UHGV virus genome: UHGV-0354376
From: a virus
Length of the DNA stretch: 13,577 nt
Direction: 5' to 3' (one strand)
Of this stretch, positions 2,078 through 5,248 are shown piece by piece (position 1 is the stretch's first letter; each line of letters opens with the position of its first letter). Below the pieces are notes generated by a model. It was not told the DNA's origin. It saw only the letters and a program-made list of their open reading frames with translations, and searched no databases. A program made the position numbers and the translations under genes.

Positions 2078-2936
2078 TACTGTTATCCTCGCAGCAGTAG
2101 TGCCGCCCCTCTGAGTCAGTAGATACATGCCCGCAGATATCGCATTCAATTTCCGGAAGCATCAGTTCTGATTTCTCTTTGATATGCAGTCGCGGTTCTC
2201 CGTCTTTCGGCTCAGGCCATTCGCGCTGCTTATTCACCGCCAGCTTTTCCACCATCGCCTGGGTAATCTGCTCATCACTGATACCGGCACGACGTTGCGC
2301 ATCCCATAACAGGAATTGCATGTCAGCCCATTCGCTAAGGTCGCCTGGTTCAGCAGCAGCCTCGAGCGCTTCTTTGGAAAGGTGCTTCAGCGGACCAACT
2401 GGACCGACATTCCCGAAGGTGTCCTGTGACCACTTCGCGTGCTCCCTGCGTACCTGTTCGCGGTCATTGACGCTATCGGCGATAGCGAATACTTCGCGGA
2501 CCTCACAACCCTCACGAACGGCTTGATTTTTCCCGTGTTCGTCAATAAGTCCCAGCCAGTCACCGTTTACTGATTTGAATTGCCAGCCTGCCAATTCAAG
2601 GCTTTTTGCTGGCTGCGGGACGCGATATTTATCAACGATACGTGCCAGTGAGTTGAAGTTGATAAAAGGAACAGCCTGATGCCCCTTATAAATATCACTC
2701 CATTCCATTGCTGGCCCGCCAGAAACTTCAGCGACAGCATCACGTAGAGCATCAAAAGGCACAGGCTCAGCATCAAACGCTGCAATAACCCCATTAATCA
2801 CCTTCACAGCATCAGCCATTGCGTAGCCGAGATTACCGCCGTCGCTTTGTTTTGCTGCTTTGCTGAGTATTTCGCGTATCTGGTACAGGCGATCGAGTGA
2901 TACAAGACCGTTCGCCGGGTGGTTGTTAGTTGTCAT
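2070..2936 (-). CDS. Two-domain phage protein: N-terminal domain of unknown function fused to a MazG-like dATP/dGTP pyrophosphohydrolase (DUF550-type) C-terminal domain
   Basis: 288 aa ORF tightly packed in the operon. The C-terminal half (WSQDTFGNVGPVGPLKHLSKEALEAAAEPGDLSEWADMQFLLWD...) resembles, from memory, the DUF550/MazG-like nucleotide pyrophosphohydrolase domain common in prophage early regions. Confidence 0.6.
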   Translation of the reverse strand: MTTNNHPANGLVSLDRLYQIREILSKAAKQSDGGNLGYAMADAVKVINGVIAAFDAEPVPFDALRDAVAEVSGGPAMEWSDIYKGHQAVPFINFNSLARIVDKYRVPQPAKSLELAGWQFKSVNGDWLGLIDEHGKNQAVREGCEVREVFAIADSVNDREQVRREHAKWSQDTFGNVGPVGPLKHLSKEALEAAAEPGDLSEWADMQFLLWDAQRRAGISDEQITQAMVEKLAVNKQREWPEPKDGEPRLHIKEKSELMLPEIECDICGHVSTDSEGRHYCCEDNSND

Positions 2937-2939
2937 GGG

Positions 2940-3140
2940 TTAGCCCTCAACTTTGTTTCCGCAATGCGGGCAATAATTAAATTTTCTGGCGAATCCTGGG
3001 TGAGGGATGGCGTGCCTTTTCGTCTTCTCGTCCCAGTCAGTAATAACCTTTTCAAAACTGGCTAACGCATCAGCCCAATCATCAGAAAGAATCGGCCTTG
3101 CTCCAATCAAGCCGACAACACAGCGTCTGCATTTTTCCAC
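2940..3140 (-). CDS. Small zinc-ribbon protein (CxxC...CPHC)
   Basis: 66 aa ORF with two Cys pairs (CRRC near the N-terminus, CPHCG near the C-terminus). It is separated by 3-4 nt from both flanking genes on the same strand. Confidence 0.6.
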   Translation of the reverse strand: MEKCRRCVVGLIGARPILSDDWADALASFEKVITDWDEKTKRHAIPHPGFARKFNYCPHCGNKVEG

Positions 3141-3144
3141 CGAC

Positions 3145-3450
3145 TCACTCCCCCTTCACGCCAATGCCCGCGGCGCTTGCTGATTCTTCATGTGCGCGTT
3201 TAGCAGCGTTAAGTATTGCTGCCAGCGGCGTATATCCGCCGTCCATTCGAATTGTGTTGTGGATGGCGGCTATCGTGTCACGCAGTTTGCTGTGGCTCGC
3301 AGAAAGTTCATCTATGCGCTTCTCTGCGGATTCCAGCTCATCCAGCAGCGCCAGCACATCCTGAGTGGGAGCCCTAAAGTTCGGAATGAAGTTGTCTTTC
3401 GCTCTCTCTGCCGCTTCACGCAGCGCCGCACGTTTGTTGAGTGCTGTCAT
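3145..3450 (-). CDS. Hypothetical phage early protein, coiled-coil rich (Ea-like)
   Basis: 101 aa ORF with a strong RBS (AAGGAG about 8 nt upstream of the ATG at 3450). It is the first gene of the leftward operon; composition is alpha-helical and Ala/Glu/Leu rich. Confidence 0.6.
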   Translation of the reverse strand: MTALNKRAALREAAERAKDNFIPNFRAPTQDVLALLDELESAEKRIDELSASHSKLRDTIAAIHNTIRMDGGYTPLAAILNAAKRAHEESASAAGIGVKGE

Positions 3451-4015
3451 TGGGCTGCTCCTTGTCTGGCTCTGCTCAAGAGCTGGTTAAACATCATGGT
3501 CAGGCTGTTACTACACCCAAACGGCATATCGTTAACACGGTAAGTAGGAATTCCCTTGCGAACACCAGACTTCACGATCCGGCCGGTGCCATAGAGTTGC
3601 GATAATGCGCCATCCTCTTGCCCGGGTGGATTGGGTTATGAGCCCGTCGCCCGGTGATGCCCTTTTCTGTTGTGCCCTGAAAAAGGCTGGCGGTTACCGG
3701 ACAAACGGGAAAACACCGGGCCGCCAGAACAGGGAGTTACTTGTTATTGCTTTGGCCTGCTTTTAACCACATCAGGCGCGGTGGTAGGTATCTTCGGGCG
3801 GGGTGCTAAGGGGGTGATTAGCCCTTGCCCTTAACACTCCTGCTGGTTTTGGTATTCCTGGCTTGGGTATCGCCACCAGCTATAGGAATTTGACTACGAG
3901 TTGCGGTTAATCAGGCCGCGCCTCTGTTACCCCTCCCGAAGACACCTGTAAGCGAATCATCCGGTTATTCATATGCCACCGGCGGCTGTCTTGCCTGTTC
4001 GCAGCTGATGAATTA

Positions 4016-4044
4016 AATATACCTGTGAGTAATTTTTGTGTAAA
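4016..4044 (-). promoter_or_regulatory. Candidate leftward early promoter (pL-like): -35 TTTACA, 17 bp spacer, -10 TATATT on the minus strand
   Basis: Read from the reverse complement of 4016-4044. It lies in an AT-rich island and is flanked by copies of the TAAAT.ACCTGT motif that also occurs in the cI-cro intergenic region. Sequence-based prediction only. Confidence 0.3.
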
Positions 4045-4156
4045 TACCTGTTGGTATATTTTTATTTACCTTAATGGCAACTAATTGCTTTTAATTGGAT
4101 TTTATTTAAGTAGGCGAGGCGTGTTATGCTCAAAAAAACACCAGAAAGGGCTTGGT

Positions 4157-4363
4157 ATGGAACGTGACGAACTGGAAGAAGACCGTGCGGCATTCATAGC
4201 TGGCGAGATTGGCGGCGCAGTTGTCGAATTGATAATTGGCGGAGTAGTGATTGACCGTGATGCGATCGTCGATTGTTTGGAAAGAAAACGACGTGCGGTG
4301 GGTAATGTGATCCACAAAGGTGTTCTGCGTGACGCCGCTGCTATGGTGAGAAAAGGGCAGTAA
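4157..4363 (+). CDS. Small hypothetical protein (68 aa), acidic N-terminus and Gly/Val/Ile-rich core; moron-like gene convergent with the repressor
   Basis: The ORF track starts at a TTG at 4085; the in-frame ATG at 4157 has AAAGGG 8-9 nt upstream. Codon usage is enterobacterial-like. It is followed 1 nt after its stop by a strong hairpin and preceded by an AT-rich promoter-like region. The overlapping minus-strand ORFs are low complexity. Confidence 0.45.
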   Translation: MERDELEEDRAAFIAGEIGGAVVELIIGGVVIDRDAIVDCLERKRRAVGNVIHKGVLRDAAAMVRKGQ

Positions 4364-4364
4364 A

Positions 4365-4386
4365 AACCCGGCTCAGTGGCCGGGTT
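4365..4386. terminator. Bidirectional Rho-independent terminator hairpin between the convergent small gene and cI
   Basis: Perfect 8 bp inverted repeat AACCCGGC / GCCGGGTT with a 6 nt loop (TCAGTG). It is flanked by AAAAA on the 5' side (a U-tract for the minus-strand transcript) and a T-rich stretch on the 3' side. Confidence 0.55.
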
Positions 4387-4438
4387 AGATGTTATTTCTT
4401 AAAGAGTTAGGTCTGTTTCAACTATCCAAAGATAGCAG

Positions 4439-5149
4439 CTACAGTTTATTGTAAGCTATTGATTCATGGAGTAGAGCTTTACCCATGATATACAGTTGTT
4501 CCTGATTTTCTTCAGTTATATACCAGTCTTTGTACACTGGATTATCGGACAGCACTGCAAGCTGCAAGCCCTGCATTTGTAATCGCTTCACGTGGAAGTG
4601 TTGTCCGAAAACGAACGCATAAACACCGTCCACCTTGAAATTTCTTATCGAAATATCGAAAAACAACCTGTCACCAGACTGGATGGTTGGGCACATGCTG
4701 TCGCCATCTACAGTCATTACTTTAACGTCATCCTGAGAACGATTCCCGAAGAGTGAACGAGCGTGCTCAGTGGTGAACTCAATAGCGTGTAGAACCTCAA
4801 CAAACTCAGAAATCATGAAAGACCCTGGACCTGCACTCACAGTAAGATCGAGAACTTCTACACGATAAGTGTCGATATTGCGGGCGGGTACATCAATATC
4901 CATATTTGAGGTTGGGCCAAGACCATCCAACCATCCTCTGCTGATTTTCAAAGCATCTTCGATCTGCCGAGCCGCCTGTTCACCAATATTCCGCTTATTA
5001 GGTTTACCAACAGGGTAAAGCATCCGAGAGACAACAGTCGGATCAAGCCCTGCATTTTCAGCAAACTCTTTCTGGGTTTTATAGCGAGTTACCAACTCCT
5101 GAAGTTTGAGGCGTCGTAACTCGAAGATGTCAGGCGATTCAGTTTTCAT
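4439..5149 (-). CDS. CI-like prophage repressor (N-terminal HTH, C-terminal S24 LexA-like autopeptidase domain)
   Basis: 236 aa ORF with an N-terminal HTH-like region (QKEFAENAGLDPTVVSRM) and a C-terminal S24 peptidase signature (GDSM serine motif and a downstream Lys in HVKRL). It is divergent from a Cro-like gene across a 99 bp AT-rich region. The near-absence of an SD upstream of the ATG would fit a leaderless pRM-type transcript. Confidence 0.9.
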   Translation of the reverse strand: MKTESPDIFELRRLKLQELVTRYKTQKEFAENAGLDPTVVSRMLYPVGKPNKRNIGEQAARQIEDALKISRGWLDGLGPTSNMDIDVPARNIDTYRVEVLDLTVSAGPGSFMISEFVEVLHAIEFTTEHARSLFGNRSQDDVKVMTVDGDSMCPTIQSGDRLFFDISIRNFKVDGVYAFVFGQHFHVKRLQMQGLQLAVLSDNPVYKDWYITEENQEQLYIMGKALLHESIAYNKL

Positions 5150-5156
5150 AATTCCA

Positions 5157-5224
5157 TCTTACTTAAATTTACTTCAAGGTAAATGACCTGTGAGTATTGA
5201 CATGTATTTACTTAAAGGTATATT
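5157..5224. promoter_or_regulatory. Immunity switch region: candidate operator repeats overlapping a pR-like promoter (-35 TTGACA 5197-5202, 16 bp spacer, -10 TATATT 5219-5224)
   Basis: Three copies of TTACTT(A/C)AA, at about 5159, 5169 and 5208. Two form imperfect palindromes: TTTAC-TTCAAG-GTAAA (5168-5183) and TTTAC-TTAAAG-GTATA (5207-5222). The 11-mer ACCTGTGAGTA (5186-5196) sits immediately before the consensus -35. The cro ATG follows at 5249 with an AGGAGG RBS. Confidence 0.45.
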
Positions 5225-5248
5225 TAATTTCCAAACATAGGAGGCGTG

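Follow-up and report, generated by a model that had tools for sequence, protein, structure and literature searches.

The analysed window is the whole 13,577-nt stretch of the UHGV virus genome UHGV-0354376, and it belongs to a lambdoid prophage of the SfV/ST64B/CPS-53 type without an N gene. Between its leftward promoter pL and the first gene of the leftward operon there is a gap at 3451–4010, in which, as an earlier note on this DNA had stated, no open reading frame (ORF) of at least 60 aa is present. The longest ORF inside has 54 aa, and a spurious plus-strand ORF of 117 aa (3190–3543) overlaps the gap by 93 bp. Statistically, this absence is ordinary, as 86 out of 500 shuffles of the region were likewise without an ORF of at least 60 aa, and the gap is notable only as non-coding DNA within a densely coding phage genome. 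Its G+C content of 0.545 exceeds that of the whole window (0.51) modestly, and its GC-rich appearance comes mainly from the contrast with the AT-rich operator region (0.31). The gap is a mosaic of about 400 nt of genuine pL leader and about 160 nt of pseudogene, and this anatomical reading is nearly certain. As the best explanation, to which we give a probability of about 0.6, the region is the folded, untranslated pL leader of an N-less prophage, cut by a deletion, that would serve as a transcription checkpoint. The interpretation in the earlier note is partly supported: it was right on a gene remnant and a structured leader, and wrong on membership among the put or nut elements.

Promoter pL was found in the promoter scan with 10 out of 12 matches. 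The operator repeats around it are mirrored at pR (5160–5229), where the arms 4011–4032 and 5208–5229 are 91% complementary over 22 nt, and the pL-like promoter proposed earlier is borne out by both. Therefore, the leftward transcript should start near 4009 and should be read from the minus strand. No further promoter-like site was recognized by the scan on the minus strand from pL to 3450.

The sequence at 3612–3987 is 99% identical to the stretch of about 500 nt that separates pL from the yfdP start in the intact contig L305, on which no gene is called. The explanation as a long structured 5′ leader holds for 3612–4009, which is 99% identical to the untranslated pL leaders of the intact prophages L305 and L308. 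Salmonella phage ST64B has the same leader design in an 815-bp gene-free gap between the repressor gene (sb38) and sb37. In intact relatives, the predicted pL transcript has 500–700 nt of heavily folded RNA, ORF-free or nearly so, and its parts are arranged as the conserved 5′ element E1, a domain closed by a helix, one or two strong terminators, an RNA with a three-way junction (3WJ), and the first gene, usually yfdP. Some phages have an STnc100-like module and a second terminator besides the terminator T1 in the leader. Positions of all these features in the window are given in Table 1.

Table 1. Position of leader elements, promoters, and early genes in the window.
Feature	Position	Strand	Description
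Integrase	27–1340	minus	
Excisionase-like gene	1399–1635	minus	
dATP/dGTP pyrophosphohydrolase	2070–2936	minus	
Ead/Ea22-like gene	3145–3450	minus	
3′ remnant of 84-codon early gene	3447–3611	minus	codons 31–84 and stop; in-frame protein match, start missing
Deletion junction	3608–3612		TGGCG (minus strand), 5-nt microhomology
Truncated 3WJ RNA	3612–3677	minus	P1 5′ arm 3657–3677, complete hairpin A 3621–3654
Core motif, tip of hairpin A	3628–3648	minus	GACGGGCUCAUAACCCAAUCC, contains GGGCUCAUAACCC
T1, intrinsic-terminator-like hairpin	3680–3727	minus	CUGGCGGCCCGG...CCGGUAACCGCCAG, then CCUUUUU; the inverted repeat of the earlier note
Conserved spacer upstream of T1	3728–3786	minus	small hairpin ACCACC...GUGGU and A-rich stretch
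Long-range helix, 3′ arm	3787–3804	minus	ACCCCGCCCGAAGAUACC
D2, 124-nt structured domain inside long-range helix	3805–3928	minus	
Long-range helix, 5′ arm	3929–3946	minus	GGUGUCUUCGGGAGGGGU, pairs with 3787–3804
E1, conserved 5′ leader element	3950–4006	minus	outer stem GCGAA/UUCGC, inner hairpin CCGGU-GGCAUAUGAAUA-ACCGG
pL promoter in repressor operator repeats	4011–4061	minus	-35 TTTACA 4039–4044, 17-nt spacer, -10 TATATT 4016–4021
S24 CI-type repressor	4439–5149	minus	
pR-like promoter	5197–5224	plus	

The long-range helix of 18 bp appears in the minimum-free-energy folds of the leader of both the window and L305, and ST64B has the same two arms with a different interior. Domain D2 is 99% identical in the intact contigs L305 and L308, and no match to it was found in complete E. 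coli genomes or in phage records. The spacer behind the helix belongs to a block of about 180 bp, which about 312 of 5426 complete E. coli genomes carry at 95–97% identity. The inverted repeat reported earlier is real (3687–3700 with 3716–3727) and is followed on the minus strand by the U-run; it is the hairpin of T1 and not a put- or nut-like element. This hairpin (3687–3727) has -21 kcal/mol with its flanks, and its U-run (3680–3686) is present on the minus strand only. With a G+C-rich hairpin and a U-run, T1 is a predicted intrinsic (Rho-independent) terminator. Covariation of its stem is seen across the family, and ST64B and L305 have homologous hairpins. The apical loop GUGUUUUCCCGUUUGU (3701–3715) is kept in many family members; a weak match to Rfam family CyVA-1 falls on it, with 20.8 bits at a gathering score of 41.4 and an E-value of about 0.05–0.1.

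The promoter-distal part of the gap has a different origin. Positions 3414–3611 align at 92% identity with a segment (L002, 1883–2077) of a small gene in the prophage of E. coli Nissle 1917. The in-frame translation of 3447–3611, GALSQLYGTGRIVKSGVRKGIPTYRVNDMPFGCSNSLTMMFNQLLSRARQGAAQ*, corresponds to residues 31–84 of the 84-residue Nissle 1917 protein (L002, 1913–2167), and an in-frame stop codon is located just upstream of this remnant. Judged from the sequence, it is a pseudogene left by a deletion, with partial in-frame homology, a missing start, and a definable junction. What had been taken for a 16-codon minus-strand upstream ORF (uORF) is the C-terminus of the 5′-truncated 84-codon gene, as seen from the in-frame match, and the boxA-like GCTCTTG is located within codons of the same remnant. 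The ATGA overlap at 3447–3450 is real: the stop codon of the remnant overlaps the ATG of the Ead/Ea22-like gene, and this is the native arrangement of the two genes.

Relatives gathered by exact look-up of the Ead/Ea22-like protein were contigs of two kinds, window-type and intact. The window-type contigs (L302, L303, and L309) are 100% identical over 3100–4500 and have the same junction; as these are independent assemblies, an assembly artefact is unlikely, and the lesion is a circulating one. The intact contigs (L304, L305, and L308) code between the leader and the Ead/Ea22-like gene for yfdP, yfdQ (DUF2303), and proteins of 179, 58, and 84 aa. Positions 3987–3615 correspond to 195–567 of L305 (99.2% identity) and 3612–3100 to 2839–3351 (100%), and the part of L305 from 568 to 2838, 2271 bp long, is missing in the window. 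These alignments indicate a deletion that took the 3′ end of the leader and about five genes, and that, by way of the microhomology, fused the 3WJ, broken at its middle, to the 84-codon gene at codon 31. The left side of the junction matches the hairpin-B variant of L131 and L001. A decayed remnant of deleted early genes, as suggested before, is thus correct for 3447–3611 and for the cut 3WJ, with a 2.27-kb deletion reconstructed against intact relatives, but not as to the genes, as yfdP, yfdQ, and small ORFs were lost and not N, cIII, kil, or recombination genes.

The 3WJ RNA has a 55-bp core with about 91% conservation in SfV, SfIV, mEp460, Stx2c and Stx2a phages, and phiNP, and in these phages the core is always in the interval that separates the repressor from the first leftward gene. 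Loci with the core number at least 120 in IMG/VR and 120 in metagenomes, and about 35 Enterobacterales genomes of more than 15 genera have it. In an alignment of 37 sequences with mutual identity below 94%, which were chosen for an upstream T-run, the RNA forms a three-way junction of an 18-bp stem P1, hairpin A with GACGGGCUCAUNNCCCAAUCC, and a variable hairpin B. In the alignment, 98% of cells are paired and both sides have changed in 10 pairs; no shuffle out of 500 was as good, and slid controls had 40–51% of cells paired. Reading the minus strand gives 60 G-U pairs and 23 mismatches, against 6 and 77 for the plus strand. Because of this wobble asymmetry, with which the covariance model scores agree, the RNA strand of the 3WJ is the minus, transcribed strand of the window. 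The covariance model, R1, gives 94–112 bits for the sense and 31–35 bits for the antisense strand (111.8 versus 34.9 in SfV).

Intact copies of the 3WJ score 91–112 bits with R1, while the window copy has 40.9 bits (model positions 22–80 of 104, at 3611–3659) because the P1 3′ arm was deleted. From hairpin B, only the first 9 nt (3612–3620) are left. Among the 121 copies listed, the partner arm of P1 is missing in the window alone. The U-run of the terminator abuts P1 in 37 out of 37 aligned representatives, which had been selected for an upstream T-run. On the 3′ side of P1, there is a Shine-Dalgarno-like UGGAGAAAC and a small GC hairpin. A short uORF starting (A/G)UGGAGAAA after the 3WJ was considered in sequences read by eye and rejected, as its length (3 to more than 13 codons) and its stop vary.

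Small proteins could be coded here instead of a structured RNA. A 21-codon ORF at 3907–3972, a 42-codon ORF with GTG start at 3447–3575, and plus-strand ORFs of 53–54 codons do exist, and a 47-aa plus-strand ORF is annotated over the core in mEp460. The 21-codon ORF, however, has only 7 codons in L001, and the plus-strand frames (MDWVMSPS...) are broken by indels in the hairpin loops across the family. Substitutions compensate RNA pairing and are not synonymous, and the G-U asymmetry indicates an RNA of the minus strand. Coding for small proteins is very improbable as the function of the region.

At the transcript start, element E1, of about 57 nt, is present in 175 copies, with 84 unique canonical variants, in an IMG/VR scan together with the loci already collected. 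Its core, AGCGAACAGGCAGGACGCCCACGAAGUAGCCGCCGGUGGCAUAUGAAUAACCGGAUGAUUCGC, is nearly invariant. E1 is always a few nt past the -10 box, about 5–12 nt after the inferred start site, and it was found behind at least 20 promoter/operator types. In the inner hairpin, two pairs switch jointly (G-C to U-A and U-A to G-C, 69:15), with no variant in which either is broken, and one further covarying pair is in the outer stem. A 3WJ core follows 290–1270 nt downstream in 134 of the 175 E1 loci. Compared with the canonical form, E1 of the window has a 12-nt deletion (in the GCCCACGAAGT region) and substitutions, and this deleted form occurs only in the lineage of the window (L302, L303, and L309); L379 has the same promoter type as the window and canonical E1. 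Prophages of the Nissle 1917 type have a putative gene for a 121-aa ‘ClpX C4-type zinc finger’ protein (L001, 4249–4614; L002, 4236–4601) directly 3′ of E1. It sits at the position of lambda N and is absent from the window. A putative plus-strand zinc-ribbon ORF with its own terminator overlaps this gene antisense in the same prophages.

No family of Rfam 15 (C4, JUMPstart, isrK, and phage motifs included) was recognized at the gathering score in the window, in the intact leader of L305, or in 14 motif loci, and the only matches on these sequences were the weak CyVA-1 match on the T1 loop and neighbouring tRNAs. At E-values up to 10, no family explained the region 3350–4450, the relatives SfV, ST64B, and GZ7, or the intact leader. 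Lambdoid prophage regulatory regions are known for RNAs that end at a terminator, such as the prophage small RNAs STnc100 and PasD (bioRxiv 10.64898/2026.05.13.724894), and StxS, an early-terminated pR′ transcript. Resembling these, the leader could be chiefly a small RNA gene, whose RNA from pL or an internal promoter would end at T1 and act at about 330 nt or after processing as an Hfq/ProQ-type regulator. The strong hairpin and U-tail of T1 and the conserved A-rich single-stranded stretch upstream of it would fit such a gene. STnc100 (RF02076) has matches just upstream of the 3WJ in SfV (39.5 bits, E = 7e-7) and ST64B (35.1 bits, E = 8e-6), both below the gathering score of 47. This STnc100-like module, on the minus strand, separates T1 from the 3WJ (L003, 2554–2769, in SfV; L301, 1665–1783, in ST64B), while canonical copies are in the late region, and the module may be mobile between early-left and late leaders. 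Against a small RNA gene, nothing like STnc100 was matched in the window even with E-values up to 10 allowed, no internal promoter-like site was found, and pL is controlled by operators, so RNA would be made only upon induction. The fixed start position of E1 and the 3WJ would also be left unexplained, and a small RNA as the chief function is unlikely.

The position of E1 invites comparison with HK022 and HK639, in which the put RNAs directly follow the start site of the early promoter (PMC9378689). Like putL, E1 is a conserved folded RNA of similar size, about 60–70 nt, a few nt from the pL start, and in both systems the N gene is missing and intrinsic terminators are located between the promoter and the early genes. 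Unlike put, E1 is predicted as one stem enclosing two hairpins and not as two tandem stem-loops, it has no second copy on the pR side, and it has no similarity in sequence or to the covariance model. This model, R2, which is based on 7 put sequences and was run with filters off, targets tandem stem-loops with CGAACGGCGCG...GGCGGGUUCAGG..GA.CGGCAAU. It recovered putL of HK022 (94.8 bits), HK639 (90.8 bits), and putR (47.3 bits), but its best score in the window was 6.8 bits at an unrelated site, which is at noise level, and nothing was recognized on E1 of L305, L301, L003, L001, or L379. BLAST with putL gave 24 phage records, none of them in the SfV/ST64B group. By these results, put membership, one of the possibilities raised earlier, is refuted for the group of the window.

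A nut site with an N protein fares no better. No boxA (CGCUCUUA-like) or boxB was found on the transcribed strand; the weak GCTCTTG is coding, as said above, and the boxB-like GCCCTGAAAAAGGC is a plus-strand sequence and not part of the leftward transcript. There is no ORF of N size (at least 60 aa) from pL to 3450, and a Pfam scan of ten ORFs, eight of them downstream of 3450, recognized no antiterminator family. A known system, HK022-type put or lambda-type nut with N, is thus practically negligible as an explanation, even with E1 at the putL position and these two weak strings in its favour. As in lambda (nutL, RNase III site, and tL), a long leader with RNA signals and terminators would gate the leftward operon to xis and int. 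In contrast to lambda, N and boxA/boxB on the transcribed strand are missing here, the leader is about five times longer, and recombination genes, kil, and cIII are replaced by yfdP, yfdQ, and similar genes.

In the checkpoint reading preferred here, all transcripts of the leftward operon, to xis and int, would have to cross T1, as there is no other promoter-like site between pL and the operon. Since no N gene or nut site is present, read-through of T1 would most likely depend on a cis-acting RNA. E1 would be the best candidate for an antiterminator, as it occupies the position of putL in HK022 and keeps it across heteroimmune phages. A put-like function for E1 is plausible by analogy, and antitermination by E1, proposed from this position, can be taken as a tentative suggestion. 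The dense folding would keep Rho off the long untranslated RNA. The 3WJ would most likely be a module for processing, stability, or binding of a host factor at the entry to the operon; any specific one of these roles is still less likely than antitermination by E1. As E1 is damaged and the 3WJ cannot close, the control region of the window is probably partly disabled. With two lesions in left-arm control, excision and early-gene expression of this prophage may be impaired.

Several points weigh against the checkpoint reading. The start site, the termination at T1, and the read-through are predictions. The 3WJ is located downstream of T1 and because of this cannot act on it. In 28 E1 loci there is no 3WJ core, and mEp460 and Stx2a_1447 have the 3WJ without E1; as each is found without the other, they are separate modules. 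The structure of E1 rests on three covarying pairs, which may reflect one lineage split. The folding energy of the 201-nt block of 3WJ and T1 is unexceptional (z = -0.4) and unremarkable on both strands. A phage protein binding E1 in trans is a possible alternative to action in cis. Conservation of E1 could also be due to its use as a recombination linker where the immunity module ends. E1 may be such a linker because identity to L305 stops within E1, at 3987, and upstream of this position the immunity module differs, with a repressor of 236 aa versus 229 aa.

Full-text literature searches gave no description of E1 or the 3WJ, and in the literature searched no explanation was found for N-less leftward early transcription in phages of the SfV/ST64B/Stx2c type. 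The E1/3WJ family appears to be undescribed, and the copy in the window is a scar of it. Starting with an invariant RNA and combining obligatory terminators with a three-way junction that covaries, the leader is a widespread candidate for this control. To our knowledge, only two RNA classes for processive antitermination are known, put and EAR, and a third antiterminator RNA class would be notable, if true.

The tip of hairpin A suggests another explanation for the 3WJ. Its 13-nt GGGCUCAUAACCC is identical to the anticodon stem-loop of the initiator tRNA (tRNA-fMet) of E. coli and other bacteria. The 3WJ could be a tRNA-like RNA or a mimic of initiator tRNA that engages RNase P, the 30S P site, MetRS, or an anticodon nuclease (VapC), and the window copy would be its dead fragment. 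Similar to tRNA, phage P1 C4, and phage P4 CI, the 3WJ is a three-way junction of tRNA size; its 7-nt loop contains CAU and is closed by a GGG/CCC stem. Among phages of Klebsiella and Raoultella, such as GZ7 and Chronis, the core occurs as a compact three-way junction of about 70 nt with stem P1 of 5–6 bp. This form is in the late operon, 6 nt after a tRNA-Arg or tRNA-Asn gene, and ends with ACCA or GCCA, so that the 3WJ adjoins tRNA genes and carries an RCCA tail in some phages. In Klebsiella phage GZ7 (L127, 2478–2549) and in L128, L165, and L155, the compact junction is located after Q and before the lysis genes, and it may represent an unannotated tRNA-like RNA gene.

On the other side, the 3WJ was not recognized by ARAGORN or by the Rfam tRNA and C4 models, and it has no D or T arm. 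No tRNA or tmRNA was found by ARAGORN and the Rfam tRNA model in the window or five relatives; in GZ7 and Chronis, only the true neighbouring tRNAs were reported. The early-leader form differs from tRNA also by stem P1 of 18–20 bp and a missing CCA. The flanks GAC and AAUCC differ from tRNA-fMet, and the final two positions of the loop are free to vary (AA, UC, UA, CC, AC, or AU), unlike tRNA positions 37–38. Mimicry of tRNA is thus doubtful and somewhat less likely than a small RNA gene.

The exact 18–19-nt motif GACGGGCUCAUNNCCCAAUCC was also found in contigs of Acidobacteriaceae, Deltaproteobacteria, Alphaproteobacteria, Planctomycetaceae, Saccharibacteria, and an uncultured gammaproteobacterium. 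In these contigs of distant phyla, it is at the tip of differing, directly abutting complementary stems of 8–11 bp and is co-oriented with the neighbouring genes, which look phage-derived as judged from predicted products; this co-orientation across phyla would also suit a tRNA mimic. Chance alone would give about 17 matches in the genome scan, and non-enterobacterial matches were roughly as many, several of them clearly inside genes. Abutting stems of at least 8 bp in at least seven loci are not expected by chance, by our estimate of about 4e-4 per locus. In the closing-stem test with RNAfold, random GC-rich flanks paired too, and the stem claim rests on the abutting 8–11-bp stems read directly. 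The motif at such distances, together with the initiator-tRNA stem-loop, suggests an unrecognised interaction of phage RNA with conserved host machinery. A combined reading, in which E1 would be a new class of cis-acting processive antiterminator unrelated to put, and the GACGGGCUCAUNNCCCAAUCC tip a cross-phylum module mimicking the anticodon arm of initiator tRNA, is speculative and about as unlikely as a small RNA gene. Unrelated long hairpins tipped by the motif are present in L149, L153, L166, L175, L179, L136, L152, L215, and L222, in regions of distant phyla that appear to be of phage origin. In the pairs L153/L215 and L166/L179, further conserved sequence downstream suggests larger RNAs.

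The CPS-53 prophage of E. coli K-12 (L310, 3400–3520) has several copies of an iteron-like repeat (GATTTTGACGGGTCA) upstream of yfdP and not this leader; apparently, a replication-origin region is joined to yfdP there. Because K-12 CPS-53 is without the leader, K-12 transcriptomics is uninformative here. In the window, a plus-strand ORF of 68 codons, with ATG at 4158 (MERDELEEDRAAFIAGEIGG...), is located in the region 4158–4386 between pL and the repressor gene, convergent with the latter. It has no Pfam match, and gene callers give it 68 or 80 aa in identical contigs. A hairpin terminator at its end (4365–4386) could serve both this ORF and the repressor gene.

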